The notes beneath the pieces were generated by a model. The model had not been told where the DNA came from. It saw nothing but the letters and a program-made list of their open reading frames with translations, and did no database searches. 55,968 bases of DNA from Minisyncoccota bacterium (lineage in GTDB: Bacteria; Patescibacteriota; Minisyncoccia; Phycocordibacterales; CSBR16-193): contig JBBDHZ010000292.1 of assembly GCA_040880645.1 (NCBI GenBank), positions 1 through 55,968 of the forward strand, in the 5' to 3' direction. The translations under genes and the position numbers were made by a program. Below are positions 23,779-55,826 of the stretch, one piece after another. Each line of letters starts with the position of its first letter. Position 1 is the first letter of the stretch.

Positions 23779-23799
23779 AGGGAGACCGCTCTACTGGTT

Positions 23800-24792
23800 T
23801 TAGTCATAATCCCAGCAAATAGAGTCATTGTTTACGTTGGTTTCATTGTATCTGTTTTCCATTTGCTCGTGAATATCGTCACGGTGTCCATATTCGTACC
23901 TCTCACACTCCTCGATAGTGTTGTAAGGGCCGTACACATATGTTGTACTGCCCCCAAAAAAAGACCCTGGCTGATGTATTCTACGATAGATCTTGGGGCC
24001 AAGCGCAGGCTCAAAAGCACCATCGTATCTAGTGAGGCTTTTAGGGCCATCAGGGTCGTGCACTTGAGGTTCAAAAATTTCGATTGTTTCGTTGAACTCA
24101 AACTCCTGACCGCTGTTATCTTCTATTTTGATGGTGAAGGTAAACTCTCCTACCTCGGTCGGAGTACCGATAAGGCGTACTCCGGTGCTTGTTGATTCAA
24201 ACGAAAGTCCCGGAGGGATTTCCCCATCGGCGATCTCCGCGTCATACTCAGACACCGGATGCGAAAACACAACACCGGGAGACAGATCGTTTCGGTACTC
24301 TTCTCCCCGAAAGGCATCGTTGAAGACAACCTCTTCGATCTGAATCTCTGAAGGATCCTGCGAGTACGCCCCGGGTTGCGTGTTCTCCAGGAATCCAAGC
24401 CCGAGGATGTCCGGGTTGATCGTGTAGATAATAAGCCAGGCGGCGGAGATCAGCAACAACCCCATTACCGCACCTTTGATGCGCTCTTTCGCCGCCGTTA
24501 CCTTGCCCGGGTTGTCGCCGGCGGTCATATACTGCAGACCGCCGATCGTGATCAGCAGCACCGCCAGCACGGTCGAGAGGCTGACGATGAGCACAAAGAT
24601 GTCTTTGACGTACGACTCGATCGTCACATCACTTCCCTCCGCGACGCCGGGAATCGGAGCGAGCGGAACGTAGTCCTGGGCAGCGACGGTGAGCGGAAAC
24701 ACCAAACCGGACCCGAGCACAAACAGCAGTATAACCACCGAGATCGAGATAGAGAAACTAAAGATGAGTGATTTTCGCATACGGAGAAACAT
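23800..24792 (-). CDS. VirB2/TrbC-like pilin fused to an Ig-like domain
   Basis: Signal peptide, then LAVLLITIGGLQYMTAGDNPGKV..AKERI..AVMGLLL...WLI...INPD; IPPGLSF...LIGTPTEVGEFTFTI (He_PIG-like Ig). Confidence 0.75.
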   Translation of the reverse strand: MFLRMRKSLIFSFSISISVVILLFVLGSGLVFPLTVAAQDYVPLAPIPGVAEGSDVTIESYVKDIFVLIVSLSTVLAVLLITIGGLQYMTAGDNPGKVTAAKERIKGAVMGLLLISAAWLIIYTINPDILGLGFLENTQPGAYSQDPSEIQIEEVVFNDAFRGEEYRNDLSPGVVFSHPVSEYDAEIADGEIPPGLSFESTSTGVRLIGTPTEVGEFTFTIKIEDNSGQEFEFNETIEIFEPQVHDPDGPKSLTRYDGAFEPALGPKIYRRIHQPGSFFGGSTTYVYGPYNTIEECERYEYGHRDDIHEQMENRYNETNVNNDSICWDYD

Positions 24793-25802
24793 TAAAAAAC
24801 AATCCCGCCGCTCGTATCCTCCGAGAGCTCAAGCTGAGTCTCGGCTCGGGCGTTCTGGAACAGAGCGGTATACACGGCGCTGACCGATACATCCGCCCGG
24901 CCGGCCGCCTCGTTCTCCGGCGTCCCGACCTGAAGGGTGTGTCGGCCCGAGGCATCCGCCACCACCTGGCCGTTCACCTGCCACACGTACCGGAGCGATG
25001 AACTGGTCGGTTCGGTCACTCCGAAGAAATACGGCACGGCAACAAGACCGGTCTCCCGGGTCGAGAGCGATTCGGCACCGATGAGTGCGTTGTGCCACTC
25101 GATCCCGTACAGCGGATTCATATGATACAGCAGCACCTGCGGCGCGCTGCGCGAGAGCGTAAGGCTGTTGCTGGCACCGGCGTACCCGTCCGGACTGGTA
25201 ACCGTGACCGAAACCGATTTATCCCGAGAACTGTCGGTGGCGGGGATCGAGAGGGTCTGCCGGCCGATGCCGGACGCGGACGACAGACGTGACCCGCCGC
25301 GCGACCACTGGTACATAAGCTCGCTGGCCCGGTACGGCCGCCCCTGCGCATCGGTCAGATGCGGCACCGCCACGATGCTCCCGCCCACCCGGGGAGCGAG
25401 CAGAGCGCGTCCGCGGTACAGCGGCGGGGTGTACCCTCGCGCCTGCGCCACCAGATCAAGATACCCGGCCGTCACATCGGTTGTGGCCTGAAAAATACCG
25501 CTCGGTGTCGCCACGCTGGCTCGGACCCGGTACCGGCCCGGCTCCCGGGGGGTAAGGGTAAATCGTGAATGCCCGATCTCAGAAAGACGCTCTTCGCCGT
25601 TGACCGACCACGTAACGCGCGCGCTGGGAATATCGAGATCGTAGGTCACGATCTCGATCGTTGCGGATTTACCGACGGCAATGTGTGCCGGCCGGGCGCG
25701 CAAGACCAAGTCGCTGGCCTGAGCCTGGACAAGAAGCGTCCCGCCACAAAAGAAAGCGAGTGACGCGAGCGATACGACAGTGAGTGAGAAACGGGCAGAC
25801 AT
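24792..25802 (-). CDS. Secreted beta-rich (Ig-like) hypothetical protein
   Basis: Signal peptide, repeated W.VNG / Y.W strands, YTPPLYRGRAL and VAVPYFF. Confidence 0.75.
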   Translation of the reverse strand: MSARFSLTVVSLASLAFFCGGTLLVQAQASDLVLRARPAHIAVGKSATIEIVTYDLDIPSARVTWSVNGEERLSEIGHSRFTLTPREPGRYRVRASVATPSGIFQATTDVTAGYLDLVAQARGYTPPLYRGRALLAPRVGGSIVAVPHLTDAQGRPYRASELMYQWSRGGSRLSSASGIGRQTLSIPATDSSRDKSVSVTVTSPDGYAGASNSLTLSRSAPQVLLYHMNPLYGIEWHNALIGAESLSTRETGLVAVPYFFGVTEPTSSSLRYVWQVNGQVVADASGRHTLQVGTPENEAAGRADVSVSAVYTALFQNARAETQLELSEDTSGGIVF

Positions 25803-25837
25803 ATCGTTTGGTGTATTCTAGCACGGCGCAACCATCG

Positions 25838-26530
25838 TTAATCCCCAGATACCGCCGAGGCAGCCTTTCGGCGGGCCGCTCGTTTAATGTTCCCCCGCAG
25901 GCTTGCCTTGTGGGTGATCGAACGTATCAGATCGTTGTTTTCAAACACGCGCGTGAGGATCACGTTTATCGTGGCGGTGGGGAGTGCGGCCAAAAGCGGT
26001 ATATAGGCAAAGACAGCGGTCGCGATCCACATCACCAGCTTGCGGGTGGTCGGCACAACGCCGCTGAAGAAGTAATACGGGACGATCACAACCGTCAGTA
26101 TCACCGCCATCACCGGACTCAAGAGAGAAGAAACGACCGCAAGCGTGACCAAGATATCGGCGATATCTTTGAGGATCGCCAGCAGGAGTACCGACCAGAA
26201 TTTCCAGCCGGTGAGCTTCTTTTTAGACTTAGTGTTCGTCTGTGTCGCGGCCTTTTGCCCGGCTCGGCGAAGCCGCTGTATACGGCGGGTCTTTGCCCTC
26301 GCCCGGGTCAGGCCACGGCGGGTCGGGATGGTAACCGGTCGCGCAAAACCTCTCGATTCGGTTGAACGAGATTCCGCGGCGCGCGACTCCGGGTCGGGTT
26401 TCTTTGCTTTCCTTGAAGCGCCGGTTTCGTCGGCCTCGTTGCTCAGGCGAGGCCCCACGCCACCCGGCGCCACCGGGGCCGGTCCGGCTTTACCACGAGT
26501 GTCTCTGCTGTACGGGCGATCCTCGGCCAT
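25838..26530 (-). CDS. Hypothetical membrane protein of the secretion cluster
   Basis: Basic disordered N-terminus followed by several TM helices; abuts virB4. Confidence 0.7.
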   Translation of the reverse strand: MAEDRPYSRDTRGKAGPAPVAPGGVGPRLSNEADETGASRKAKKPDPESRAAESRSTESRGFARPVTIPTRRGLTRARAKTRRIQRLRRAGQKAATQTNTKSKKKLTGWKFWSVLLLAILKDIADILVTLAVVSSLLSPVMAVILTVVIVPYYFFSGVVPTTRKLVMWIATAVFAYIPLLAALPTATINVILTRVFENNDLIRSITHKASLRGNIKRAARRKAASAVSGD

Positions 26531-26531
26531 A

Positions 26532-28373
26532 CTAATTTATAGGTTCTTGTTCTTTGTTTGCCTCCTGATCATTAAACTCTTCTTTCGATTTCTTGATCGC
26601 CATCACCTCAGACGGATCCGAGGTGATGATCTGGTCCTCGGTGTAGCTGGCGATGACTTTGATTGCCACGTGTTTTAGGCCGGCAAAGAAGATGCCTTCC
26701 CCGACATCGGACTCCATTAGCAGGTATTTTTCTTCTTCGGTTAAATGAAAGATCTCTTGGAGTTTTTCCGCCCCGGACGGAGACTGTTTCATCAAAAACT
26801 GCATCGACGAGTTGGTGATGATCGGCAGGCCGTACGGTGATTTCAGGAAGTCGCCGACGTCCTGGGTGATCGTCGAAAGGCCGAGGTAGTACTTTCGTCC
26901 ACGCTTCGCCAGCCCCAACAGGAAGGACGCGGTGTCTTCTGATTTCATCATCCACCACGCCTCGTCGATGACCAGCAGACGTTTCTGGAGCCGGCGGCGG
27001 ATCGCGTTCCAGATATGGTGGGTCACGATATACATCGCGACCGACTTCAGCTCATCCTCCATATCTCTCAGCGAGAACACGACGAACTTTTGTTCGATGT
27101 CGACGTTCGTCGGCTGGTTCAAGAACCCGGCCCAGGTTCCTTCGGTGTACTTGGAGAGGCGCTGGGAGAGCGATTCCGCGCCCTGCATACCCGACAACAC
27201 CGTCTCGAAGTCCGACAGCAGCGGCGCCTCGACCTTGGTCAGATCGGCGTCCGGCGTAATGTCCTTCAGGGCGTACGTTTCCGTGATCGCCTTGTCGATA
27301 ATGGCGTCTTCTTCCGGGGTCAGACCACCCATCATAATACGGAACAGCCCGACCAAGTGAATAATGTTCGAGCGCAGGATGTTCGCGGTTGATTCGCCTT
27401 CGGTCGGCATCGGCAGGTCAAACGGATTAATGTGGTGCTGGGAAGTAAGCGAGATGTTAAAGTACCGCCCACCGACCGCCTCGGCCAGGTACTCGTACTC
27501 GCGCTCCGGGTCGAGCACGATCACCTCGGTGTCGAACATCAGCGACCGCAGGATCTCGAGTTTCGTCCCGTACGACTTTCCGGAACCCGATTTCGCCAGA
27601 GTCACCGAGTTATAGTTCTCAAGACTGTACCGGTCAAACAGGACCAAGCTCGAGTTGTGCCGGTTCACCCCGAAGAGAATACCGGAATCCGACGTGAGGT
27701 CGAACGACACAAACGGGAACAAACTGGAGAGCGGGGTCGAGTTCAGTTTTGAGTGCACCTCGAGCTCATCAGTTTCGATCGGTATAACGCTCCGGAATCC
27801 TTCAGCCTGCTGGAACAGCGCCGGTTTCACGTAGATCAGTTTTGCCTCAAGAATTGAGTGGATCTCGGACTCGACCTTATCGAGCTCCTCTTTGTCGTCG
27901 CCGTAGATGCTGATGTACAGCCCGACATCAAACAAACGCTCCTGGGCCTGCTGGAGTTTATCGCGCAGGTTTTCCAGGTCCTGGTACGCCGTATCGAGCT
28001 GGGGATCACGCACCAACCCCTTGTCTTCCCGCTCGTGGATCTGGCTCTGCACCTCGGCGACTTTGTTCTGAAACTTCTTGAGGATCTGGCTGGTTTCGAT
28101 CGGGTGAATAAAGATCGAAATATCAAACACTTTATCCAGATCGATCACCGGGGAAAACCAGCTCTCGGTCAGGTACCGCGGGTACGAGATGACAAACAGC
28201 GTTCGAATCATCTTGTCGCCGAGATGAAGTTCTTTCGGGGTTATCTTAAGCGCGCTCGGGGCGATGATGTCCTCGAGCTCGAGTGATTCCGCATCCATTA
28301 ACTGATGGGGGAGGATGAGATCTTCATCACGCACCGTGCTTTTTTTTGATTTTCCGAATCCAAGGATACTCAT
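26532..28373 (-). CDS. VirB4-like type IV secretion ATPase
   Basis: Walker A AKSGSGKS, LDPEREY, INPFDL, Walker B LLVIDEAW, RGRKY and ITQDV.DF. Confidence 0.92.
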   Translation of the reverse strand: MSILGFGKSKKSTVRDEDLILPHQLMDAESLELEDIIAPSALKITPKELHLGDKMIRTLFVISYPRYLTESWFSPVIDLDKVFDISIFIHPIETSQILKKFQNKVAEVQSQIHEREDKGLVRDPQLDTAYQDLENLRDKLQQAQERLFDVGLYISIYGDDKEELDKVESEIHSILEAKLIYVKPALFQQAEGFRSVIPIETDELEVHSKLNSTPLSSLFPFVSFDLTSDSGILFGVNRHNSSLVLFDRYSLENYNSVTLAKSGSGKSYGTKLEILRSLMFDTEVIVLDPEREYEYLAEAVGGRYFNISLTSQHHINPFDLPMPTEGESTANILRSNIIHLVGLFRIMMGGLTPEEDAIIDKAITETYALKDITPDADLTKVEAPLLSDFETVLSGMQGAESLSQRLSKYTEGTWAGFLNQPTNVDIEQKFVVFSLRDMEDELKSVAMYIVTHHIWNAIRRRLQKRLLVIDEAWWMMKSEDTASFLLGLAKRGRKYYLGLSTITQDVGDFLKSPYGLPIITNSSMQFLMKQSPSGAEKLQEIFHLTEEEKYLLMESDVGEGIFFAGLKHVAIKVIASYTEDQIITSDPSEVMAIKKSKEEFNDQEANKEQEPIN

Positions 28374-28402
28374 AGATCTGTATTGATACAACCACGACCA
28401 CC

Positions 28403-29068
28403 CTACTTTTCCTCCTCCGCACCGGTGGTGGGCAAATCGGTCTCCCCGGGATTAAAGGTCTGGTAAAACAGCTCGGTTATTTCGTCCGTTCCGAGACGAG
28501 CGGCCCGAACGCCGGTGCGGATCAGTCCCTGCTCCACCACCGACACCCGTGCTTCCAGCTGGCTTCGTTGCTGCTCGAACGACTGTTTATCCGCTTCTTT
28601 CTTCTCTTCGCTTGTCCCCCCTTTGCCGATCAGGCTCTTGAGCCCGCCGAGGATACCACCGCCGGAAGAAGTGCTCACCGTCGGCGTGTACGGCACGACG
28701 ACGTAAAAGTGTTTCGACATTATATTCGTTTTTGCCGTGAAGGTTTTGATGAACTCGATATATTCCTTGGTCTGAATTTTGAGCAGATCGTTGACCTGCT
28801 CCTTCTGGCGCTCTTCGAGCCGCTGAATGTACGGCCGAATGTCGAGCTCGCGTGACTGAATACAGATCTGTGTTGAAAAATCAAGCGAATTAAGAAAGTT
28901 CTGGAATTGATACAGCGTTGATTCCTGCTCCTCCTTTGACTTCAAACCGAAGTTGACCGTTGAGGTCATCAGGATCGCCCGCAGGGAACCGTTCTTCAGG
29001 ATCGCAACGTCGTCGCGAATTTCCTTGATCGGAATGAATTTTTGTGACGGGGTGCTTCGTGTTGCCAT
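28403..29068 (-). CDS. T4SS-associated protein between PrgI and VirB4
   Basis: VNFGLKS.EEQ...FLNSL pattern, similar to N-terminal segments of monoderm conjugative VirB4 systems; cluster position. Confidence 0.7.
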   Translation of the reverse strand: MATRSTPSQKFIPIKEIRDDVAILKNGSLRAILMTSTVNFGLKSKEEQESTLYQFQNFLNSLDFSTQICIQSRELDIRPYIQRLEERQKEQVNDLLKIQTKEYIEFIKTFTAKTNIMSKHFYVVVPYTPTVSTSSGGGILGGLKSLIGKGGTSEEKKEADKQSFEQQRSQLEARVSVVEQGLIRTGVRAARLGTDEITELFYQTFNPGETDLPTTGAEEEK

Positions 29069-29174
29069 AGTAAATACTGTCTCTAGTGTAGCATATCGGC
29101 GCTGTCAACAACGGCGCGGTCCGGCGCTCTGCAGCCTGCTCCTTCTTGCTGAATGCTACCGCGCATCAAAAACC

Positions 29175-29699
29175 CTACGAATCGCTCGGTCCGGTTTTTT
29201 CTGCCGCCGGCGCGGCCTGCGGTTCGTTCGCCTGCTCGTTCGTAAGGCCTCGCTGCTCCTCTTTTTCCAGCATCTCTCGCTCTTCGGTCCCGTTGCCGTC
29301 ACCGACATCGAGGTTCCAGGTCATACTCTTGAGCTTGCCCGCCCCGCCGAGACGCGGAACACCGGCGCGCACCTCTTTCTTTTCGGCCTCTTCCAGTGCT
29401 TTTTTGCTCGGTTTTTTTCGTCGCCGGTCCCAGATAAACAGCTTTGACCCGGTGGCGTAGTAGAACGCCGCCTCCAGAACCTCGATGAACGGCTTTTCGT
29501 TCACCTTGTAAAACGCCAGAGCTCCGGCAAGAAGCGCGACCGGAACAATGAGCACGATCGCGACCAGGCGGTACGGGACCAAAAACCACAGCGCGACCGA
29601 TCCGCCGACCCCGCCGGCAATGTAGATGAACTGCTTCAAGGTAAGCGGCCCGAACAGCTTGTTTTCTACCTCTATATATTGGGGGACGTGAAATCTCAT
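29175..29699 (-). CDS. PrgI-family (VirB3-like) protein
   Basis: F.VPQYIEVENKLFGPLTLKQF plus two TM helices. Confidence 0.88.
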   Translation of the reverse strand: MRFHVPQYIEVENKLFGPLTLKQFIYIAGGVGGSVALWFLVPYRLVAIVLIVPVALLAGALAFYKVNEKPFIEVLEAAFYYATGSKLFIWDRRRKKPSKKALEEAEKKEVRAGVPRLGGAGKLKSMTWNLDVGDGNGTEEREMLEKEEQRGLTNEQANEPQAAPAAEKTGPSDS

Positions 29700-29820
29700 A
29701 GTTTATGTACAGGTTTTAGTTTCCCGCTTCTACGAACGCACTTGCTTTTTGTGTACGCATTGTCGCTATTTCGGTTGTACACGGCACAACACGAGAGAGC
29801 GAGAGTCCGGCAGCGAGAAC

Positions 29821-30711
29821 CTAGCTGATCGGCTCGCGGTACGGATCCTCCACTTCCCCGTACCGTTCGTCCGGGTCGTTTGTCTCCGGCGAATCTTGCT
29901 CGATCTCACCGTCCGCGACAACATCGCGCGGACCGTGCTCCCCGTTGGGGTCTTCGATACCGGCCAGCACCTCGCCGCGCGAGAGATTGTGGTGGTCGTG
30001 ATCAGTCTCTTGAAACGAGTCAAACCCTTCGATCCGCTGGTTTGCACTTGAGGGTTTTTGCGGAACCGATCGGGCTGCGTTATCCGCGCCGCCCGCTACC
30101 GGCTCGTCATCGTCCCAGACACTGGGCGGTGTCGCGGGGGCCGGTGGCCGCTTTGCTTGCGGCCGCGGCGCCTGTGTTCGCGGCATCGCCCGTCCCCCAC
30201 GCTCCGAACCACCGAGAGAGCCTTCTTCGGCACCTCTCTCGGCGCCGGGTAGATCGCGCGGTGCAGGAGCAGAGCGCGCCCCGTCACTCTGGCGATCGCT
30301 CCCTCTTCGCGAGGACGAGAGCGCGTTGCGCGCGGCGTCCCGGGGAGACTCGGCCGCTCCGGATCTCCCGCCACGCCGGCCATCCGATGTATCCATCTCT
30401 TTGAGAAATGTGTTGGCCCGCGGATCGCGAAAGACGATCTCCCCTAAACTGCTCGCCAGCCGCGCGGCGATCTCCCCCGGAACTCCCGCCTCGCTTTCGA
30501 GCGACTTCGTGAATCGGGACATCGGACTCACCCCCATCAGGGTGTACATAGTCTGATCGACCACGTCGGTCAGTCGCTCTTCCGCGACACCGCTCGCGCG
30601 GGCAACCTGGCGTATCGTTGCCGGCGTATCCGGAGAAAGCACGACCGCCCGAACGCTCTCCGGGAGCGCTGAGACATACTCGGCGAGTTGTTGTTGTTCT
30701 TGATCTGCCAT
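29821..30711 (-). CDS. Hypothetical protein with a helical N-domain, disordered linker and C-terminal DPYREPI
   Basis: Co-oriented ORF within the secretion cluster. Confidence 0.75.
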   Translation of the reverse strand: MADQEQQQLAEYVSALPESVRAVVLSPDTPATIRQVARASGVAEERLTDVVDQTMYTLMGVSPMSRFTKSLESEAGVPGEIAARLASSLGEIVFRDPRANTFLKEMDTSDGRRGGRSGAAESPRDAARNALSSSRRGSDRQSDGARSAPAPRDLPGAERGAEEGSLGGSERGGRAMPRTQAPRPQAKRPPAPATPPSVWDDDEPVAGGADNAARSVPQKPSSANQRIEGFDSFQETDHDHHNLSRGEVLAGIEDPNGEHGPRDVVADGEIEQDSPETNDPDERYGEVEDPYREPIS

Positions 30712-30743
30712 TGCTCTGAATAATTACTCACGCTGCACTCACC

Positions 30744-33143
30744 CTAGGGTCCGCCACCTGTTCCACCACCGCTACCGGTCCCGCTTCCACCACTGCCTCC
30801 CGAAGGTCCGCCGGCGGGAGGGGTCGGCGGTTGCAACACACCTTCATTTTGAAGTGTTTTAAGGGCGTCTTCAACTCCCTTACTTTTTCCGAAGTTCTTT
30901 TTCAGGTCCTCGAGGTTCTTTCTCAGGTCCTGAAGTTCTTTGACTGCGTCCCGTTCTTCCTGTTCCGCGTCTTTTCTTATCCGGCGCGCCTGAGCATCCT
31001 GTTGTTCCGCCTGTTCTTTCCGTTGAGCCGCAGCTGTTCGATCCTGACGGGCCGCTGCCTTCTGTTGCGCATAGGAACGCTTTACATCACGAACCTGAGC
31101 CGCACGCGCACGCTGTACCGTCTGCGCTCGATCCCGCCGCACCTGCACCTCATCACGCTCTCGGCGCTTCTGCTGAAGCTCGGGGGTGTCGGCCACTGTT
31201 CCTGAAGCCAAGCTCTGTTCCTGCCCTTCCCGTTCCGCCTTTTTCTCTTCAAGCCGGCGCACTAACTCGGGGTCGGGGCCGGCCGGATTGCCACTCGCGT
31301 CGAGGACCCCTGAACGCTGTGATTCTTCTACCCGAGCTTCCAGCTCTTGCTCTTCGTTCTGTAACGCCTCGAGACGTTCCTGCATAGCGGTGCGCGACTG
31401 CTCCTCGAGATCACCGATCTCGGTGTCGACCTGAGCTATCTTTTGATCAAGCTCGGTGGCAAGGGTGCCGGCTCGATCCCTTCGTTCTTTTGTCGCGTCA
31501 ACCTCGGATCGCTGTTGGTCTCGAACGCCTTCATACCGACTCTGGCTCCTGTTTACATCGCCGTGCGCCCGGGCAATATCCGCTCCGGCAGCCCGTTCCT
31601 CCCGACGAGCGACGTTCTGATGGCCGCGCGCAAGGTTTGCCCGTTCTTGTTGGAATTCTTGTTTTCCTCTATTCTCGACCTGTGTATTTATATTTTCGAT
31701 CTTTCCTTTCCGTACCCCCTCTTCCTTCGCTGCGTCCACAGCGGATTTGCCGCCGCCGTACTTGGCCTTGGCCATTTTTTGGGTGGTAAAGCTTCGGAGC
31801 GTCGTCCCGATTCGGGAATTTCCGAGCCGTGAATCGTTTAATTTCTCCTCAGCTTTCCGGCCGAGCCGACCGATCGTGCTTCGGCCCGCAAGCCCTCCCA
31901 CACCGCGGAGCGGTCGCGAGAAAGTGCTGTTCGCCACCTTTCCTCCGATCGATCCGGTCAGTTTGGAAGAGAGAAGTATCGATCCGACAAGAAAGGCGAT
32001 GACAACGATAAAGTTTAACATCAGGATAACCATCGCCCCTCCTCCCGCGGCAACCCCGCTGATAAACCCGCCCGAGGCCTCAGAGCGAAGCGTGGTAAAA
32101 GCCGGACTGGCGACGATCTTTATGACCAAAAGCAGCATCAGGAAAAAGGCCGGAGCAAAGAAGGAGTGTTTGATCAAGGCCCCGAGCCATTTCTGTCCCT
32201 GGCCGGCGGTCTGCGGGAGGATGAACGCCGCCAAGGCCAGCGGTGAGACGATCATAAGGAACACAAGCGCCACGAAACGCAAGATAAGGAGCAGAGCGGC
32301 GGTAAGAAGCACGAAAGCCGCGATGATCATCACGGCCGATCCGGCGATCATCACAATCAATCTCGTAAAGACACTGCTCACGGCGCCGGCGAGGTGATCA
32401 CCGGCGGTGGGTTGTGTGTTGGCGTCGCCCGGCGAGTACACCTCGATGACCATCAGCGTGTCGGCGAAGATGTTAGAGATACAGCTATCGGCCTGGTTCG
32501 TGGTCGTGTCACAGCCCGAGACGTTGGGGTTGGCCGCCGCCTCGTCGCTGATGGCCTGGTGCAACTCTACCGCCAGAAAGTTGCTGAAATCAATGACCAC
32601 CTGGGTGAAAAAGAGGCTGAAGTTGATCAAGAGAGCGACGAGAATGAGATTGCGCAACAAGCCTTTGGCCTGGTTGTCGCCGCTGTTGAACATAAACTTG
32701 ATCCCGATATAGAGCAGAACAAAAATAAACCCTATGTTCGCCAGGTCCCGGAACATAGTCCAACCGGCGCTCACGACGTCTATCGCCTCAACAAAATGCT
32801 TCATATTGAGAACAACGAGCACAACGGTGCCGTTCAACAACACCCCGGCCAGCCATAAGAACCAGGACGTGATCCACAGGACGACATTGGAGAGGAAAAT
32901 AGCAGCCTTCTCTTGCGCCTTAGCCACTTCAGCGGCAATGATGTTACCCGCAACCCTACCGCCAACAGTCGCGCTCGCTTTTATGATTTGTAAAGCAAGT
33001 TCCAGATTTGACAAGCCATCCGCTTCAACCGTCTGAACCGAAACCCCCTCGGTCGGATCGACCGCAACCGGCGCGAAAACACCGATCCCGATAAGTGATA
33101 CCAGGACTCCGCCCAGAAGGAATTTTCTCAGGAATAACGGCAT
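30744..33143 (-). CDS. VirB6/TrbL-like polytopic membrane protein with a long C-terminal coiled coil
   Basis: GW..FRDLANI.FI, LI.VALLINFSLF, R...L.FL.I.SPLA....ILP......W; E/Q/R-rich tail. Confidence 0.8.
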   Translation of the reverse strand: MPLFLRKFLLGGVLVSLIGIGVFAPVAVDPTEGVSVQTVEADGLSNLELALQIIKASATVGGRVAGNIIAAEVAKAQEKAAIFLSNVVLWITSWFLWLAGVLLNGTVVLVVLNMKHFVEAIDVVSAGWTMFRDLANIGFIFVLLYIGIKFMFNSGDNQAKGLLRNLILVALLINFSLFFTQVVIDFSNFLAVELHQAISDEAAANPNVSGCDTTTNQADSCISNIFADTLMVIEVYSPGDANTQPTAGDHLAGAVSSVFTRLIVMIAGSAVMIIAAFVLLTAALLLILRFVALVFLMIVSPLALAAFILPQTAGQGQKWLGALIKHSFFAPAFFLMLLLVIKIVASPAFTTLRSEASGGFISGVAAGGGAMVILMLNFIVVIAFLVGSILLSSKLTGSIGGKVANSTFSRPLRGVGGLAGRSTIGRLGRKAEEKLNDSRLGNSRIGTTLRSFTTQKMAKAKYGGGKSAVDAAKEEGVRKGKIENINTQVENRGKQEFQQERANLARGHQNVARREERAAGADIARAHGDVNRSQSRYEGVRDQQRSEVDATKERRDRAGTLATELDQKIAQVDTEIGDLEEQSRTAMQERLEALQNEEQELEARVEESQRSGVLDASGNPAGPDPELVRRLEEKKAEREGQEQSLASGTVADTPELQQKRRERDEVQVRRDRAQTVQRARAAQVRDVKRSYAQQKAAARQDRTAAAQRKEQAEQQDAQARRIRKDAEQEERDAVKELQDLRKNLEDLKKNFGKSKGVEDALKTLQNEGVLQPPTPPAGGPSGGSGGSGTGSGGGTGGGP

Positions 33144-33155
33144 AGCGTAGAGCTA

Positions 33156-34391
33156 CTAGAAGAAGTTTGCGATTATGCTGTTGATGATGTTCTTTGCGAC
33201 ATCCATCGCGGCGTCCTCGAGCATATCGACCATATTGTCGAAGTACTCCTGAAGATTGATATCAAACAGATCGTTGATGAACGAATCAAAAGTGTCGAGG
33301 AAATCCTCTTCCAAGACCCCGCCGGTCTTCATGTCCTCTTCGATCTGGTCACACGCGGCAACCAGGTCGGCCACCACACTCTCCGCCCCGACCGACGATC
33401 CGTGCTCACCGATCTGGGTGAGCGCGTCGTCACAGAAACCGACCGCCCGGCTGAGTTTCTCCCGATTAATGTTTCCCGGAGTAATAGTTCGCTGGCCGAC
33501 GATTTCTCCGGTATCGGGGTTTTCAATAACCTCAACGTTGCCGTGATACCCCTGGTTCCAGTCAAGCTTGAGCCGCTCGGTCTCGAGCGCCGCGGCGGTC
33601 CGGCGATTCAGTGCTTCTTGAGCCTTATCGAACGCGCCGTACGGGTTGTTGTCCGGCACCTGCGTCATCGCAAACCATGAATTCCAGCCGCCCTGGCTGA
33701 AGTCACCGCCGTAAAACGCCTCTGAGTTTTGGGCGCTCCCGGTCACGTCATCGAAGGTGTAGTTGCGGTCGTAGTACGTACTGTCAAACGACGGGTTCGA
33801 CCGGCGGAGCCCTTCGGCGACCGCGTCCGAGTACGGCTCCGGCCCGGTGTCCGATGAGCCGGCGCTACCACACACGGAGAAGCCATACGACTTCTCCATA
33901 AAGCGATTGAACTCGCTTTCCGCTACTTCCTGGAAGTAGAGATCCGGCTGGTCCTCGGCGTACGGTGACTGCGTCGGACCGTTGCAGTCCGACAGATAGC
34001 GATTATCGAGGTACCCGGAAAAGCCCTTCTGGATGTCGGTCAGTGTTTCTTTGTTTTTCTCGACAAGTGCCGCCTTTGCCTCGCCTTCGTCTTCCGGGTC
34101 ACGGCGGACCTCTTTCTCGACCAGTTCACTGAGCAGGCCCACCAGCTCTTCGAGCGCGCGCACGCTTTCTGAATTAACCTGAATGTTGGCCTCGTCAACG
34201 ACCGGTACGTTCTGGTTGCCAACGACCCCGAACACGGTCGGAGCAACAGTGAAAAAACTAAGAGCAAGCGAGCCGGCAAGAAGTGCGCCCCCTAAAAATC
34301 TCGGTGAGAAGCGCCCCGCTTTCCGCTTTCCTCCGTGCCCACTTTCTTGCCCATCTTCTTGCCGGTGAATCGTGTGTGTAAATAGTGCCAT
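33156..34391 (-). CDS. Exported acidic protein of the secretion cluster
   Basis: Signal/TM segment, VPV.D, GDFSQGGWNSW...PDNNPYG and ITPG motifs. Confidence 0.75.
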   Translation of the reverse strand: MALFTHTIHRQEDGQESGHGGKRKAGRFSPRFLGGALLAGSLALSFFTVAPTVFGVVGNQNVPVVDEANIQVNSESVRALEELVGLLSELVEKEVRRDPEDEGEAKAALVEKNKETLTDIQKGFSGYLDNRYLSDCNGPTQSPYAEDQPDLYFQEVAESEFNRFMEKSYGFSVCGSAGSSDTGPEPYSDAVAEGLRRSNPSFDSTYYDRNYTFDDVTGSAQNSEAFYGGDFSQGGWNSWFAMTQVPDNNPYGAFDKAQEALNRRTAAALETERLKLDWNQGYHGNVEVIENPDTGEIVGQRTITPGNINREKLSRAVGFCDDALTQIGEHGSSVGAESVVADLVAACDQIEEDMKTGGVLEEDFLDTFDSFINDLFDINLQEYFDNMVDMLEDAAMDVAKNIINSIIANFF

Positions 34392-34469
34392 CGTGTGCCT
34401 TGTTAGATTAGTAACCGCCACCTCTGTTCGTTCTACGTTAGTATATCGCAGTTTCGGACACCGCCGAGA

Positions 34470-41942: not shown

Positions 41943-43043
41943 GTGACACACCGAAGTATCAGCTCATTGAGTAAAATCGCTGTGGCGGCGGCACTCATCG
42001 GGAGTTTTGGTGTTGGCGCGGTTCCCCGCTCGGTTGAGGCGGGGTTCTTTTCGTTTATCCGGGGGATGCAGGAGAAACGAGAGACAAAACCGAACTCATC
42101 CAGTAACTCATTTACCGCCATTGACCGCCCGAACAGCCAAACAATGAACCTGCTTCAGGCCCCTCGAAATGTTAACCCGGGAAGCATCGCCCAGGGTGGC
42201 GGTGATATTTTCATCATCGGAAACGAAGCGCTCTCCCCGGGAAGCCGCTCTGACGGCCCTGATCGAGACGATGTGAGTGATGATAGAGGACGTATTCGTG
42301 AGTATGTGGTGCGTGAAGGTGACTCGCTCTCTCGGATCGCCGAGATGTTTGATGTATCGGTCAACACAATCCGCTGGAGCAACGATATCGGCGCGAACGG
42401 CAACATCAGGATCGGTCAGAAGCTGATCATTCTTCCGATCACCGGTATTCAGTACGTTGTCGAGAGCGGCGACTCCCTCAGCACGATCGCCGAGGAGTTT
42501 GGAGGGGATGTGGACGAAATACGCGAATTTAACCGCCTGAATGACGACGATGTGCTGCTTATCGGGGACGAGGTGATCATTCCGAACGGCGAGATCAAGC
42601 AATCACCACAGCGATCAGGTACTCCAAGCGCTCCCGCCCCGCGCGCACCACGAACCAATCCGGCACCAAGCAGTGGATACTACGCCCACCCCGCTCCGGG
42701 CGCGATCGTGACCCAGCGAACGCACGGTTATAACGGTATTGACTTTGGAGCCGGATACGGCACCCCGATCGTAGCCTCTGCCCGGGGAACGGTTATAATC
42801 TCCCGCACTGGCTGGAACGGCGGGTACGGAACGTATGTTGTTATCGATCACGCAAACGGTACCCAGACCCTCTACGCCCACAACTCACAAAACACTGTAT
42901 CGGTCGGCCAAAGTGTTGAACAAGGTCAGGTTATTGCGTATATGGGCTCAACTGGACGCTCTACCGGAAATCACGTTCACTTCGAAGTTCGCGGAGCAAC
43001 GAACCCGTTTGCCTCGTGCGGCCTGAGAACACAGTGTCGCTAA
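41943..43043 (+). CDS. LysM-LysM-M23 peptidoglycan endopeptidase
   Basis: Two LysM repeats (YVVREGDSLS.IA); M23 motifs H.YNGID, YAH and GRSTGNHVHFEV. Confidence 0.92.
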   Translation: MTHRSISSLSKIAVAAALIGSFGVGAVPRSVEAGFFSFIRGMQEKRETKPNSSSNSFTAIDRPNSQTMNLLQAPRNVNPGSIAQGGGDIFIIGNEALSPGSRSDGPDRDDVSDDRGRIREYVVREGDSLSRIAEMFDVSVNTIRWSNDIGANGNIRIGQKLIILPITGIQYVVESGDSLSTIAEEFGGDVDEIREFNRLNDDDVLLIGDEVIIPNGEIKQSPQRSGTPSAPAPRAPRTNPAPSSGYYAHPAPGAIVTQRTHGYNGIDFGAGYGTPIVASARGTVIISRTGWNGGYGTYVVIDHANGTQTLYAHNSQNTVSVGQSVEQGQVIAYMGSTGRSTGNHVHFEVRGATNPFASCGLRTQCR

Positions 43044-43099
43044 CCCGCCCACAAAACACGCCACTCCTGCGAGTCATCCCGCTTCAACGCGGTTTTTTG

Positions 43100-43546
43100 T
43101 TATCACGTGACACAGTAGCTCTTTAAAATATCTTAAAACACGGTTATTTTGTTTAATAAACCACACCTTCCCGCTCTCAAAATACCGGACACGCATTGTA
43201 TGTATCAAAAGTATTTGATCACTTTCTCACCTAATCGTTCTCTATTCCATTCCCGGACCGGTGTTTGCGAATCCGGTAGATCACTCTCCCCAGACACCGT
43301 TCTTTGTATAGATGTTTTTAAATGAGCTCTATTATAGCTGTGGGTATGTGTAGAAGAACACTCCTACACCTTTGTTGAGCTGGTAAATAAAGATTTGATG
43401 GTGGGGATACCGATAGGAAGTTACGGGAATAGTGGGTATAACTTTTAGAAATAGAGCGCACTATCCCCGTTTTACTCTCTTCTCTCCCTCTATTATCCCC
43501 TCGAAATAAACATACAGTACCCACTTCTTCCCCGGAGTTATCCCCG
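43100..43546. other. Candidate replication origin (oriC)
   Basis: About 500-bp AT-rich non-coding gap with ~7 degenerate DnaA boxes; apparent switch from C-rich to G-rich top strand. Confidence 0.6.
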
Positions 43547-45079
43547 TTACACGGTTTGCGGGCGGTACGTGATCGCCTCATATATGTGCTCCGGCAGAAC
43601 ATCCCTACTCTCTTCCAGGTCGGCGATGGTTCGGGCTACCCGGGCGACTTTGTAGAATCCACGAGCAGAAAGATCGTAGTGTTGGGCGGTCTCGGTAAGG
43701 AGTGTGTGAGAATCGGGGTTGAAATGACCGTGTTCGATGATCTCTCGCGAGGAAAGCTCTTTATTCACCGTTGTGGCAAGACCGTGCTGTTCTGCCCGTT
43801 CGTGCATACACTCACGGGCCCGGGCAACCCGTTCTCGCAGAGTAGCGGTGCTTTCCGACGGAGTTGAGTAGTCACTGAGGCGAGAGTGGTCAACTTCGGC
43901 AACCGTGAGCCAGATATCGATCCGATCAACGATCGGTCCGGAGAGTTTTTGTTGGTAACGGGCGAGTTGATGAGCGCTGCAGCGGCAGATCTTTCCTTCG
44001 GTCCCGTAATTACCGCACGGACACGGATTCATTGCGGCAACCAAGAGGAAATTAGCCGGAAATGTGGCGTGTCCGGCGGTCCGGGCTACGGTTATTGAGC
44101 GGTTCTCGAGTGGCTGGCGCAGGGATTCAACAACTCGCCGGTCAAATTCCGGAAATTCATCGAGAAACAAAACACCGTGGTGCGCGAGCGTGATCTCGCC
44201 CGGCTTCGGCAGGGCGCCGCCGCCGATGAGTGCCGTGTACGAAGAGGTGTGATGGGGTGAACGAAACGGCCGCTCGCGTATGATCGGCTCGTCCGAGAGC
44301 TCTCCGGCAACGGAATGAATAGCGGTTATCTCCAGAGATTCCTCGAAGGTCGGCTGAGGAAGAAGCGAGCGAAAGGCTTGGGCCAGCATCGTTTTGCCGG
44401 TGCCGGGCGGCCCGCTCATCGCTACGTTGTGTCCGCCCGCCGCGGCAATCTCTAAACCGCGCTTTGCGGACTCCTGCCCGCGCACCTCGGCCATATCAAG
44501 CGACGGTACGGGAGAAGGGTTGACCGCTGTTTGGGGGGCCTCTTCAGGGCTTCGGGTCAGCTCGCCCGTGATCAGAGAAACAAGCTCGGTGAGGTTGGCG
44601 ACGCCGTACACATCTATACCACTCACCAGCGCGGCTTCTGCCGCGTTCTCACGGGGGACATAGAGTGTTGTGAAGCCGTGATCCCGGGCGTACGTAGCCA
44701 GTGACAGTGCCCCGGCGATCGGGCGGGTGCTTCCGTCAAGCGAGAGCTCGCCGGCGATACAGGCGGTGTCGGTGTCTGCCTCAAGTGTCTCGATCGCGGT
44801 TAGATACGCGACCGCGATCGCGCAGTCAAATACCGAGCCCTCCTTTTTGCTGTGGGCCGGGGCAAGCGAGACGATTACTTTGTGATTTTGTTGTTTTGGT
44901 GAAGGGTAGCCGCTGTTTTTTAAGGCGGCGGACACACGGTCGCGGGCCTCTTCAACCGCTTTATCCGGCAGTCCCACGATCGAGAACGCGTACAACCCTT
45001 GGGTAATATCCACTTCGATACGAACCGGTTGTGCTTCAAGAAGGCGTACTTGGGCGCTGTGGATTCGGGCAACATTCAT
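43547..45079 (-). CDS. comM: YifB/ComM Mg-chelatase-like AAA+ ATPase
   Basis: IVGLPDKAVEEARDRV, GPPGTGKTMLA, RPFRSPHHT, GVLFLDEFPEF and AAMNPCPCG. Confidence 0.93.
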   Translation of the reverse strand: MNVARIHSAQVRLLEAQPVRIEVDITQGLYAFSIVGLPDKAVEEARDRVSAALKNSGYPSPKQQNHKVIVSLAPAHSKKEGSVFDCAIAVAYLTAIETLEADTDTACIAGELSLDGSTRPIAGALSLATYARDHGFTTLYVPRENAAEAALVSGIDVYGVANLTELVSLITGELTRSPEEAPQTAVNPSPVPSLDMAEVRGQESAKRGLEIAAAGGHNVAMSGPPGTGKTMLAQAFRSLLPQPTFEESLEITAIHSVAGELSDEPIIRERPFRSPHHTSSYTALIGGGALPKPGEITLAHHGVLFLDEFPEFDRRVVESLRQPLENRSITVARTAGHATFPANFLLVAAMNPCPCGNYGTEGKICRCSAHQLARYQQKLSGPIVDRIDIWLTVAEVDHSRLSDYSTPSESTATLRERVARARECMHERAEQHGLATTVNKELSSREIIEHGHFNPDSHTLLTETAQHYDLSARGFYKVARVARTIADLEESRDVLPEHIYEAITYRPQTV

Positions 45080-45144
45080 ATAGATCGTACGCTCTTGTGT
45101 ATGCCAAAAAACAGATACACACAACCCGCCAGAGCGGTGGCGGG

Positions 45145-45522
45145 TTAGATCTCCTCGATATCTGCCTTGCAGGTACGGGCGGCCGGATTTGCTTCCAGTC
45201 GTTCTTCCTCGATCTGTTTGCCGCACACTGTGCAAACGCTGTAGGTCCCCTCCTCAACGCGCTCCAGGGCATCTTTGACCTCATTGAACCGGATCTCGAG
45301 CTGTTCGAGGATCGCGACGTGCTCCCCGTACTCCTCGATGTCGTCGGCCTCTTCGTTCAGGTCCGCGGAGTGCGGCTGGCCCAGGTTGGCGGCCACGGCT
45401 TCCCAGTCGCTTGGGTTGTCGGGGTTGATCCTCCCGATACGCTGAAGTTCACTAACGAGCTCCTCCATCTCGTCCTCGAGCTTGCCTTTATAGTATCCTA
45501 CGTCGATAGTGTCGTCTGTCAT
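45145..45522 (-). CDS. DksA/TraR-family zinc-finger protein
   Basis: AL.RVEEGTYSVCTVCGKQIEEERLEANPAARTC. Confidence 0.88.
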   Translation of the reverse strand: MTDDTIDVGYYKGKLEDEMEELVSELQRIGRINPDNPSDWEAVAANLGQPHSADLNEEADDIEEYGEHVAILEQLEIRFNEVKDALERVEEGTYSVCTVCGKQIEEERLEANPAARTCKADIEEI

Positions 45523-48496: not shown

Positions 48497-50611
48497 CTAA
48501 CTTTTTTTGGTGTTTTTTATAAAATCGGGATCGACAGCTTTTAGCGAGAGCTTGAGGCGGCCGCGGTCATCGATCTCTTTGATCACAACAGGCACGTTCT
48601 GCCCGACCGTCAGGACGTCCTCGACCTTCTCGATACGGTACGGGGCGATCTCGGAGATATGCAGAAGCCCGTCCGTGCCGTTACCGAGCGTGACGAAGGC
48701 GCCGAACTCTTTGAGTGTCGCCACGGTGCCGTTGTAGCGCTGCCCCACCTCGTAGACACGGGTGATCTCCTCGATATCGCGGATCGCTTGTTCTACGCCG
48801 TCGGCTTTTCCGGTGATGACAACCGTTCCGTCGTCCTCGATGTCGATCTCGGTCAGCGTGCGCTCGCGAAGGTCGGTGACCACCTTTCCGCCGGGACCGA
48901 TCAGGTCGCGTATTTTTCCGGTCGGGATCGAGATCGTCTGAATATACGGTGCATTCGGCGAGGTTTTCTCGCGCGGGGCGGCGAGTTCGGCCTCGATAAC
49001 GTCGAGGATGCGCTCACGAGCCTCTTTAGCGCGGGCGAAAGCCTCGCTCAGTATCTCCGGGGTGACCCCGTTCACCGTAACGTCCATCTGTACCGCGGTG
49101 ACCCCGTCGCGGGTGCCGGCAACCTTAAAGTCCATATCACCGTGGTGGTCCTCCGGACCCTGAATGTCGGTTAAAACCTTATACTCACGGTCGCTGTGCA
49201 TTAGCAAGCCCGAGGCGATACCGGCAACCGGTTTTGCGATCGGAACCCCGCCGTCCATCAGGGCAAGACTGGACGCACAAACCGATCCCATCGAGGTTGA
49301 GCCGTTGGAGGCTAGGGCCTCCGAGACCAGGCGGATCGTGTACGGAAAGGTATCTTTTGACGGAATAACCGGCTCGAGTGCTTTCTCGGCGAGCGCACCG
49401 TGCCCGATCATTCGTCGGTTTGCTCCGCCCATCCGTCCGGTTTCCCCTACGGAAAACGGCGGGAAATTGTAGTGATGAATAAACCGCTTGTCGCCGCGTG
49501 TCTCCATTCCCTCGAGCAGCTGCGAGTCACCTGGTCCGCCCAGTGTAAGCGCGGTTAAAATATGTGTTCCACCGCGATAAAAGATACCGGTGCCGTGATG
49601 GATCGGACTGATGCCGCCGGCCTGGGCGAAAAGCGGGCGCACCTCGTCCATTGCCCGGCCGTCGGGGCGCTTGTCGTGTTTGATCGCGCCGATATGAATC
49701 GCTTCGTTGATTTTGTCTTCCAGGTACGCCATCGCCCGGGCTCGGTTGGCGTCGGGGGCGTAGTCGGCGAGTGTCGCTTCCCACAGCCTCTCGACAGCGC
49801 TAAGGGTTGCCTTGCCCGGCTGGCCGGAGAAAACATACGAATCAAGGTCCGGCGCGATGTGTTTTTCAAACAGCACCACGATCTCATCAGGGACCGGCTC
49901 CGGCTCGATGATCCGCTTGTCGTGGCCGATCTCCGTGATAATGCGCCGCTGCCACTCCTCGAGCCGCTCGATCTCTTTGAGAGCAACACCAATCCCCTTC
50001 TCGAGATGCGCCTCGCTTGCTTCGTGAGCGCCGGTTTCGATCATCGTAACCCTGCCGCGCTGTCCGCAGACAACAAGATCGGTGTGGAACTGGTCTTGAT
50101 TGCGGAATTCGTAGGTCGGATTGATAACGAATGCACCACGCTCGTCGGTTGAGCCCACTCGAACCGCACTGACTGGCCCGTTCCAAGGGATGTCAGAGGT
50201 GCCGAGCGCCAGCGAGGCGCCGATCACGGCGAGCATATCCGGGTCTTCCTCGTCGATCGAGAGCACCATCACCACGATCTGGGTGGGGGTGCGCAGGTGG
50301 GTGTCGAACAGCGGCCGTATCGTCCGGTCGATAAGGCGCGCCGAGAGCGTGGCCTCTTCAGAGGGTTTCCCCTCGCGACGCATATACCGGCTGCCGAGGA
50401 TCGCTCCGGCGGCATAAAACCGCTCCTCGTAGTCCACCGTGAGCGGGAAAAAGTCACCGTCGGCGGGACGTTTGTCCATTACGGCGGTGACCAGGACGGC
50501 GGAGTTGCCGCACCGGATCAGGACCGAGCCGTCCGCTTGGTCGGCCAGGTCGCTGAACTCGGCGGTCACTGTCTTTTCCCCTACGGTGATCGAATACTCG
50601 TGTGTGTGCAT
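48497..50611 (-). CDS. pnp: Polyribonucleotide nucleotidyltransferase
   Basis: FFPLTVDYEER, RLIDRTIRPLF, HHYNFPPFSVGE, SNGSTSMGSVC, GDMDFKVAGT, KH and S1 domains. Confidence 0.97.
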   Translation of the reverse strand: MHTHEYSITVGEKTVTAEFSDLADQADGSVLIRCGNSAVLVTAVMDKRPADGDFFPLTVDYEERFYAAGAILGSRYMRREGKPSEEATLSARLIDRTIRPLFDTHLRTPTQIVVMVLSIDEEDPDMLAVIGASLALGTSDIPWNGPVSAVRVGSTDERGAFVINPTYEFRNQDQFHTDLVVCGQRGRVTMIETGAHEASEAHLEKGIGVALKEIERLEEWQRRIITEIGHDKRIIEPEPVPDEIVVLFEKHIAPDLDSYVFSGQPGKATLSAVERLWEATLADYAPDANRARAMAYLEDKINEAIHIGAIKHDKRPDGRAMDEVRPLFAQAGGISPIHHGTGIFYRGGTHILTALTLGGPGDSQLLEGMETRGDKRFIHHYNFPPFSVGETGRMGGANRRMIGHGALAEKALEPVIPSKDTFPYTIRLVSEALASNGSTSMGSVCASSLALMDGGVPIAKPVAGIASGLLMHSDREYKVLTDIQGPEDHHGDMDFKVAGTRDGVTAVQMDVTVNGVTPEILSEAFARAKEARERILDVIEAELAAPREKTSPNAPYIQTISIPTGKIRDLIGPGGKVVTDLRERTLTEIDIEDDGTVVITGKADGVEQAIRDIEEITRVYEVGQRYNGTVATLKEFGAFVTLGNGTDGLLHISEIAPYRIEKVEDVLTVGQNVPVVIKEIDDRGRLKLSLKAVDPDFIKNTKKS

Positions 50612-54507: not shown

Positions 54508-54555
54508 TTATCCACAGGTTATGTCTTTTACAAATGTAAAAGACATTAGTATACT
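54508..54555 (+). promoter_or_regulatory. Sigma70-like promoter with an operator-like palindrome and an upstream consensus DnaA box
   Basis: TTATCCACA 54508-54516; ATGTCTTTTACA-AA-TGTAAAAGACAT 54521-54546; TTTACA-17 bp-TATACT (54550-54555). Confidence 0.65.
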
Positions 54556-55110: not shown

Positions 55111-55826
55111 TGTTTCACGTGTAACCATAAATACGCCTAAAACGTGCATTTTTGAACTGTTGTGTGCGAGGAGATGTTCTAGTCGCGCAACTCAAAAAGG
55201 TTACACGTGAAACAAAACACAGAAAACAGCCAGGTTACACGTGTAACCTGGCTGTTTTTCTCTGTTTGGGGTGAAAATGTTACACGTGAAACAGTACTCG
55301 AGGTGTTTCACGTGTAACAGGCTACTTTACCCAGTATTTCTTACGAATCTCCTCAAGCACCTTCTCATCTTCTTCCTCAAGCTTCTCTTTCCCCTTTTCT
55401 CCGAGCTTCTTAAGATCTTCCTCGGTCAGTTCCAGAAGGCCCTTGGCACGTTCTGTTAGGTGCTCTTTCGTGTTGCGCGACGGATCATCGAGAACTTCTT
55501 CCAGCAGGGCGTGGAGGATGTAGCCAATTTTGGGGCCCGGCTGCATCCCAAGCTCGCTCATCAGCGTGTTTCCGTCTAGGGCAAGGCTTTTTACCGATAC
55601 CGGGTCGCGCATCGCTTCTTCGATCATCGATTGATACTTGCGGAGTCGGTAGGGGCGCTCCTTGGGTCGTCCTGTTCCGATGCGGTCGCAGATACGCAGG
55701 TTCACGATCTCCTCGATATTCTCCTTGCCGATATGACTAACCAGCCGCCTGACCGCGGAAAGGGTGATTTGTTCGGGATCGGAGAAGAACATATGCCAGC
55801 GGACCAGCGTTGTTACACGTGAAACA
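55111..55826. promoter_or_regulatory. Cluster of six parS-like (ParB/Spo0J-binding) sites
   Basis: (T/G)GTT(T/A)CACGTG(A/T)AAC(A/C) at 55111, 55199, 55233, 55278, 55304 and 55811; matches TGTTNCACGTGAAACA. Confidence 0.85.

Follow-up and report, generated by a model that had tools for sequence, protein, structure and literature searches.

Does chromosome replication in this bacterium begin beside dnaA or at a distance from it? According to PMC7111523 the inflection of the GC skew frequently lies near dnaA. Origins at a distance from this gene are known as well, and the step by which an origin moves is rarely visible. In a contig of 55,968 nucleotides, here called the window, a preliminary description placed a probable oriC beside comM at a distance of about 23 kb from dnaA. 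The window is the whole of contig C292 of a Minisyncoccota assembly (G000; 292 contigs, 2,137,187 bp), and we compared it with G001, the sole other genome of the genus, with the Parcubacteria-type relatives G002-G040 and with a closed genome, G041. The strand composition, the conservation of the locus in G001 and its tandem pair of DnaA-boxes all support that placement, and on these grounds we consider it very likely that the genus has its functional, DnaA-dependent chromosomal oriC in the gap that separates comM from an M23 peptidase gene.

Location and composition of the gap downstream of comM

The proposed oriC is a gene-free gap of 503 bp (43044-43546) between two convergent genes that both read into it, the LysM-M23 peptidase gene on the + strand (41943-43043, assigned with Pfam) and comM on the - strand (43547-45235), which encodes a Mg-chelatase ChlI-type ATPase (PF01078 at 1.3e-91, PF13541 and PF13335). 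Genes of the window were called with Pfam, and rpmH (~20353-20493, + strand) was read by eye. In the neighbourhood rpmH, rnpA, yidC and jag all lie on the + strand, with ksgA and uvrD and then the M23 peptidase gene and comM beyond them.

The gap had been described as AT-rich and as lying between convergent genes, and this holds, as it contains the AT maximum of the contig both in 40-bp windows (82% AT at 43122-43161) and in 300-bp windows (61% AT at 43095-43394). That 40-mer falls within a block (43095-43244) which is the second AT-rich block of the gap and is poorly conserved in comparison with G001. No match to Rfam was obtained in the gap at the gathering score, and at E <=1 there was just a 14.6-bit match inside comM and none in the gap. 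Consensus scans of 42900-43700 found no terminator and three weak promoter-like sites.

DnaA-boxes and a candidate unwinding stretch in the gap

All seven boxes of the preliminary description were recovered in place on reading the sequence. Two of these form a tandem pair beside the AT-rich part of the gap, TGTGGGTAT at 43339-43347 and TGTGTAGAA at 43347-43355, which overlap by one base and on the - strand give a pair TTCTACACA / ATACCCACA with an offset of 8 nt. It is the sole tandem pair (<=2 mismatches) in the 56-kb contig. Two further boxes share a right-arm orientation on the - strand, namely TGGGGATAC at 43402-43410 (GTATCCCCA on the - strand), whose 31-nt spacing to the next box is the same in G001, and TGGGTATAA at 43433-43441 (TTATACCCA on the - strand), which sits within a 17-nt stretch identical in G000 and G001. 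On the + strand the left-arm orientation is represented by CTATCCCCG at 43461-43469, located 28 nt from the first oppositely oriented box as is also the case in G001, and by TTATCCCCT at 43493-43501 and TTATCCCCG at 43538-43546, both identified by reading the sequence and in a scan for TATCCCC, the latter adjoining the comM stop codon and ending one base before it. As expected of the box cluster of an oriC, the non-coding gap thus holds seven 9-mers within 2 mismatches of the canonical TTATCCACA in two orientations, and the boxes have an AT-rich element beside them that includes the AT maxima of the contig and reaches 70-73% AT next to the tandem pair. None of the boxes in the G000 gap is within 1 mismatch of TTATCCACA.

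The clustering of TATCCCC in the gap is more than chance. The window contains 9 matches compared with 3.85 +/- 1.83 expected (1 of 100 shuffles reaches 9), and four of the nine lie within the 143 bp of 43403-43545. Across the 2,137,187 bp of the assembly there are 107 matches and the gap is the only 200-bp window with 4, the next best having 2, which corresponds to a Poisson probability of 1e-10, or 1.6e-6 when corrected for all windows. With TTATCCACA at <=2 mismatches the gap (6 in 260 bp) merely ties with a chance cluster in a coding region of contig C23; this densest canonical-box rival (C23:24263) was rejected, as it lies inside a 402-aa reading frame. A TTATCCCC pair on contig C149 was also rejected, because its members are the arms of a single perfect palindrome located where the contig ends; the palindrome, with GGGGATAAGTCCAAT arms, occupies ~3845-3885 of that contig.

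In the basal unwinding system (BUS) of the Bacillus subtilis dnaA-dnaN spacer, as set out in PMC8287927, tandem DnaA-boxes 6/7 are followed by a spacer, DnaA-trios and AT-rich DNA, and the rule given there comprises a box with <=2 mismatches, optionally a tandem second box, a spacer of <=16 bp and at least three NAN triplets. In the gap TTCTACACA and ATACCCACA have 2 mismatches each and so agree with the box part of this rule, including the optional tandem second box. Beside the pair lies a TA-rich stretch read on the - strand (43295-43338; 70-73% AT in 30-bp windows) in which a GC spacer is followed by TAT AAT and then by AT-rich sequence, and which is a candidate DnaA-trio region and unwinding start that can be aligned to the TAATA(A/G)TA trios of relatives. 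After the tandem pair of G000 the GC spacer is followed by TAT AAT and then AGA, which gives only 2 consecutive NAN triplets, so that the window itself falls short of the three in the trio rule, and in G001 a TA spacer is followed by TAT AAT AAA GAA, which gives 4. A strict scan for at least three (T/A)A(G/A) trios found neither the G000 nor the G001 module. The tandem pair at 43339-43355 can be aligned with GTATCCACTTATCTACA of G001 and with the tandem pairs in the dnaA-dnaN spacers of relatives, and on this alignment corresponds to the pair of boxes lying directly beside the unwinding element in those genomes. The earlier claim of tandem boxes beside the AT-rich part is therefore borne out, with the addition that they match tandem pairs in the dnaA-dnaN origins of relatives.

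Strand composition switches at the gap

From base 1 the cumulative GC skew of the window declines until it reaches its minimum at 43,616, and it increases thereafter. On the left side of the gap the skew of the + strand is negative and on the right side it is positive, whichever way the genes are oriented, and it is therefore not a coding-strand effect, in agreement with the earlier impression of C-rich DNA to the left and G-rich DNA to the right. The right skew arm of the window is just 11 kb in length and the final 1.4 kb of the contig is negative again; the question that this short arm poses is settled by G001, in which the cumulative minimum of a 189,394-bp contig (C2) lies at 99,592, at the 3' end of comM (98,138-99,667), with arms of about -0.1 over ~100 kb on one side and about +0.1 over ~75 kb on the other. 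The skew of G001 passes dnaA (121 kb) unchanged. The cumulative skew minimum, which had been proposed as a check on the placement of the origin, thus maps to the gap in the window and in the long arms of G001 and not to dnaA. At ~175-189 kb of the same G001 contig the skew is negative again only 75 kb from the origin, and this reversal may reflect a rearrangement, an island or a join made in assembly.

As a control for polarity, the same switch from - to + was found at the dnaA-dnaN spacer in G025 (123,012), G012 (69,156), G028 (208,498) and G038 (68,215), and the spacers at these four switch sites carry a tandem box pair and an AT-rich tract. The closed genome G041 served as a further calibration of polarity. 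Four other genomes (G004, G010, G019 and G027) have a dnaA-dnaN module and yet show their raw cumulative minimum at a distance of 3-53 kb from dnaA, either on the comM side or beyond it, and their skew is weak in this region. A weak skew can thus make the position of the minimum imprecise in this clade, and weak skew, recent change or local composition are all possibilities for these four genomes.

The gene order and orientation of the window are fully collinear with G001, G025 and G012, and the strand bias of the same genes was compared between genomes. The 22-kb segment that separates the two sites was examined through its orthologues from rnpA to the M23 gene, whose third-codon GC skew, referred to the + strand of the window, amounts to -0.071 in G000 and to -0.195 in G001. 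The same orthologues give +0.165 in G025, +0.146 in G012, +0.074 in G028, +0.124 in G038 and +0.072 in G027, and values near zero in G010, G019 and G004. The same genes in the same orientation thus show opposite strand bias, as predicted by a changed direction of replication through the segment. A skew switch with the polarity of an origin is accordingly present at the gap in G000 and G001, with the skew of the orthologues reversed relative to that in relatives.

Loss of the dnaA-dnaN origin module

Both dnaN (17543-18655) and dnaA (18755-20152) were assigned with Pfam to the - strand, and point away from the gap as the preliminary description had it; together (17543-20152) they lie 23 kb from the proposed origin and are co-directional with the leftward fork. 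The spacer between them (18656-18754) is 99 bp in length with 46% AT, and no boxes were found in this spacer or in that of G001 (17 bp). The flanks of dnaA had been said to have few boxes, and within 1 mismatch we found none in the spacer and none in the 600 bp upstream of dnaA in G000. One TTGTCCACA occurs inside the first codons of dnaA. The combination of boxes and an AT-rich element that marks an origin adjacent to dnaA is thus missing from G000.

Relatives outside the genus differ clearly from this. Their dnaA-dnaN spacer is 185-343 bp in length and 57-85% AT in 29 of 29, contains at least one box within 1 mismatch in 26 of 29, and in 26 of 29 ends, on the dnaA-sense strand shortly before dnaN, in a tandem pair with three or more NAN triplets. 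In this module the tandem boxes are offset by 8 nt or slightly more and are followed by a short, often C-rich spacer and by runs such as TAA TAG TAG TAA TAG, an arrangement that matches the BUS as it is presented in PMC8287927. At 80 further loci dnaN was reached in 73, the other 7 ending within 280 bp; the spacer in these 73 is 142-1544 bp in length with a median of 218, none is shorter than 120 bp, and 67 have a box. Judged from the box scan and the spacers of relatives, the residual spacer of the window is the erased site of the ancestral origin. The earlier reading of a displaced origin is upheld as to the displacement and is refined to a lineage-specific relocation in which the ancestral dnaA-dnaN site has been erased. 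Coding remnants of dnaA or dnaN, sought by tblastn in both gaps as relics of the move, gave only matches with E >1.

Separately, the 200-bp rpmH-dnaA spacer contains two copies of a TGTGCACA palindrome at 20240-20290, which may be an operator of the dnaA promoter.

Conservation of the proposed new site in the genus

The convergent comM-M23 pair is present in 32 of the 40 genomes examined. In the 30 of these besides G000 and G001 the gap measures 0-295 bp in 23 and 561-1499 bp in 7 and has at most one box, and only the gaps of G000 (503 bp) and G001 (546 bp) have more than one. In both, following the direction of comM, GGGGATAA-orientation boxes are followed by opposite boxes, the tandem pair and AT-rich DNA, with common box spacings of 28 / 31 / 54-55 / 8 nt, and the core of the module can be aligned with the dnaA-dnaN modules of relatives. 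Conservation of boxes downstream of comM, another check that had been suggested, is therefore seen with the same spacings in G001, and among the 32 gaps is confined to the genus.

The strict trio scan found the dnaA-dnaN module in G010, G019, G027, G004, G025 and G028 and missed the module of G000, G001, G012, G038 and G041. Because of these five missed modules we adopted a signature of two boxes (<=2 mismatches) offset by 8-9 nt and followed by 50 nt of >=76% AT. It matches G001:C2 once (99,917), in the comM-M23 gap. In G019, G025, G012, G028 and G038 it matches once each and in G027 and G004 twice each, always in the dnaA-dnaN spacer, and there was no match in G010, whose module falls short of the AT threshold.

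The genus is represented by two genomes only, which are kin. A search for more members in metagenome contigs using the 17-mer common to G000 and G001 gave 84 loci, of which 80 were fetched; with comM or M23 nearby in none of the 80, these were regarded as chance matches and rejected.

Box consensus and the DnaA protein

The preliminary description proposed a shifted box consensus despite a canonical DHTTV recognition helix. The latter is confirmed, as the domain IV motifs KPRQ, SYPSIG and GGRDHTTVIH are present in all 31 DnaA sequences and are identical there to B. subtilis DnaA. We take these motifs to map to the E. coli DnaA contact residues R399, P423, D433, H434, T435 and H439. Two substitutions within domain IV are specific to the genus (positions as in G000), namely L413M, at a site where L is present in each of the 29 others, and I419S.

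With regard to the boxes we counted bases at position 7 in 9-mers matching TTATNCNCA with <=1 mismatch. The base replaced by C at this position is invariant in the stringent E. coli box consensus. Of the 14 such 9-mers in the two gaps of the genus 10 have C and 4 have A at position 7, compared with 118 with A and 23 with C among the 160 from the spacers of relatives (Fisher 1e-5, a value that overstates the case because the two gaps are kin). The shifted consensus proposed earlier is therefore real. It does not amount to a new specificity and is better described as a shift in frequency, because 23 of the 160 boxes of relatives also have C7 and a perfect TTATCCACA is kept 11 kb away. C7 boxes (TATCCCCA) occupy one place of the dnaA-dnaN tandem pairs of G006, G007 and G012 and are also present in the left arm of G015, and the tandem pair of G001 itself is of the CCAC/CTAC type. 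From these comparisons C7 usage is a real shift within a variant already tolerated by the clade.

The only perfect TTATCCACA of the window (54508-54516, + strand) is syntenic with three tandem boxes in G001 and with a box pair in G041. In G001 (C2, 87,606-87,635) a perfect TTATCCACA is flanked by two C7 boxes in one tandem array, and a conserved DnaA-box site with a perfect TTATCCACA is thus found 11-12 kb beyond comM in G000, G001 and G041 (~198,553-198,573 in the last). Nearby are five parS-like sites (55111-55826), with 1-2 mismatches to what we take to be the parS consensus and 0.25 expected, which agree with the earlier mention of parS sites 12 kb from the origin. Syntenic parS-like clusters are present in G001 (88.7-90.3 kb), G025 (94.5-94.8 kb) and G041 (~198.2-198.4 kb), and relocation would have brought the origin from ~35 kb to 12 kb from this cluster.

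A probable second relocation in a closed genome

In the closed genome G041 (752,630 bp) the cumulative skew is lowest at 207,770 and highest at 560,530, two points 353 kb apart, and is flat over 196-220 kb with a sharp rise after. No box within 2 mismatches was found in its dnaA-dnaN spacer (~150 bp), and a tandem pair TTATCAACATATCCACA followed by 88% AT lies at 221,666 between uvrD and ksgA (module region 221,520-221,760). The third-codon skew per gene is -0.112 for 196-217.6 kb, -0.049 for the M23 gene and uvrD, and +0.275 from ksgA to rnpA. G041 therefore resembles G000 in having a dnaA-dnaN spacer without boxes and a module in another gap of the same conserved block at which the skew flips, and differs in that the uvrD-ksgA site is two genes further towards dnaA and in belonging to another lineage. 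In a tree of DnaA, which is a single gene with weak deep nodes, the family G000-G007 has a support of 0.996, the genus branches as sister to genera in which the dnaA-dnaN module is retained, and G041 groups with G012 outside the G000-G007 family. The moves in the genus and in G041 are for this reason independent on this evidence, and the uvrD-ksgA module would represent a second relocation.

Comparison with known origins

The gap resembles a BUS of the B. subtilis type in its tandem pair beside a TA-rich and then an AT-rich stretch, in the upstream boxes of two orientations and in the canonical domain IV of DnaA. It differs in lying between comM and the M23 gene 23 kb from dnaA, in that most boxes are C7, and in a NAN run of 2 in G000 and 4 in G001. 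With the relatives G002-G040 it shares the order of the module and its orientation on the chromosome, and the core T(T/A)TCCAC-TATC(C/A)ACA and TAATA-type triplets can be aligned. In those genomes however the module is in the dnaA-dnaN spacer (26 of 29), whereas the spacer of the genus, at 99 or 17 bp, is empty.

Separation of the origin from dnaA is also a feature of E. coli oriC, as stated in PMC8287927. In our case the flanking genes are other ones and the move is recent enough for collinear relatives to show the prior state. E. coli oriC lies between gidA and mioC and has two box arms of opposite orientation, and in those arms as well as in its distance from dnaA the gap is similar to it. 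In its architecture the gap would be an ordinary DnaA-type origin; what appears unusual is its history, that is a relocation within a collinear block with the old site erased. We found no description in the literature of origin relocation in Parcubacteria or Patescibacteria.

Alternative explanations

A cluster of DnaA-boxes away from dnaA can also be a site of titration, as at datA-type loci, or could regulate comM or the M23 gene, with the origin located elsewhere. All boxes of the gap are weak by the E. coli standard, and the separate conserved cluster with a perfect TTATCCACA 11-12 kb off in G000, G001 and G041 indicates that non-origin box clusters do occur in this region. Unlike a datA-type locus, however, the gap coincides with the skew switch and has an AT-rich element that a titration site would not need, the skew minimum falls on it in two genomes, no other module of tandem pair and AT-rich DNA exists on the 56-kb or the 189-kb contig, and the ancestral dnaA-dnaN origin is gone, which makes a purely regulatory or titrating role very unlikely. 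The repeats could otherwise be bound by a protein other than DnaA, or be an RNA or promoter element, with any initiation at this site proceeding without DnaA-boxes, since TATCCCC departs from the canonical box at a position that we take to be critical while the recognition residues of DnaA are unchanged. Against this, dnaA-dnaN origins of relatives also use TATCCCCA boxes, as part of the tandem pair in G006, G007 and G012 and within the left arm in G015. G001 moreover has an array in which a perfect TTATCCACA stands between two C7 boxes, its tandem pair is of the CCAC/CTAC type and Rfam has no match in the gap, and we regard the idea as highly improbable.

It may also be asked whether the skew switch is simply the boundary of a rearrangement or of foreign DNA to which the boxes are incidental. 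Such a boundary would be in keeping with the short right arm of the window and with contig C266 of G000, where switches in the skew are about as deep and go with the strand of the genes and with a regulator gene that looks mobile. Across the switch, however, the genes of the window keep full collinearity with those of G001, G025 and G012, comM and the M23 gene are adjacent in 32 of 40 genomes, the arms of G001 extend over 100 kb and 75 kb, and on each side the + strand skew has the same sign for both gene orientations, leaving an extremely small chance for this explanation. A switch on C266 was itself considered as a second origin-like locus and rejected, as it follows gene strand and has no boxes. 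Both switches of this contig (~17.7 kb and ~46.9 kb) go with gene strand, a helix-turn-helix regulator gene is located at the second of them, and an inverted or mobile segment may be involved.

Proposed mechanism and significance

If the gap is the oriC of the genus, as we favour, DnaA would bind the two oppositely oriented arms of 9-mer boxes and from the tandem pair at 43339-43355 would oligomerise leftwards, in window coordinates, onto the adjoining TA-rich stretch. The oligomer would then open the AT-rich DNA and forks would depart both ways. As to how the module reached the gap, we infer that it was probably duplicated or translocated as a whole without a change of orientation, and that the old copy was deleted afterwards. 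A broader and more tentative proposal, to which we would give a little less than even weight, is that oriC in this order is a portable cassette, the full module (two arms of boxes, the tandem pair, trios and an AT-rich element) having been copied at least two independent times, with its orientation kept, into different gaps within a single conserved 40-kb block (comM-M23 in the genus and uvrD-ksgA in G041) with the dnaA-dnaN copy erased each time, and that the boxes of the genus have drifted from A to C at position 7 with no change in the base contacts of DnaA, a drift that L413M and I419S may make tolerable.

The states before and after the move are both preserved in fully collinear genomes, and the strand composition over 22 kb is already reversed. 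These genomes offer a natural test case for how much sequence suffices for an origin, for whether relocation passes through an intermediate with two origins, and for how far DnaA-boxes drift while the recognition residues stay fixed. In practical terms, origin finders and peak-to-trough methods of estimating growth rate that are anchored on dnaA would misplace the origin in these genomes. Over 20 kb we would expect a coverage slope of about 1-3%.

Further observations on the assembly and the region

At 2.14 Mb G000 is large in comparison with its 41 relatives (0.5-1.1 Mb). Its contigs show a single mode of GC content (0.50-0.62) and one copy each of dnaA and comM. The large size may be genuine, or more than one genome may have been combined in the assembly.

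Within the window pnp (48497-50611) has no tblastn match at the syntenic place of G001:C2 or G025:C2 and is present in G012, G028, G038 and G041. A cluster of genes on one strand (22486-34421) is type IV secretion-like and encodes a T4SS pilin domain, a TraG/VirB4-like P-loop protein and a PrgI family protein. The order of this cluster is conserved in G001, G025, G012 and G041, and it is probably a Patescibacteria type IV secretion system.
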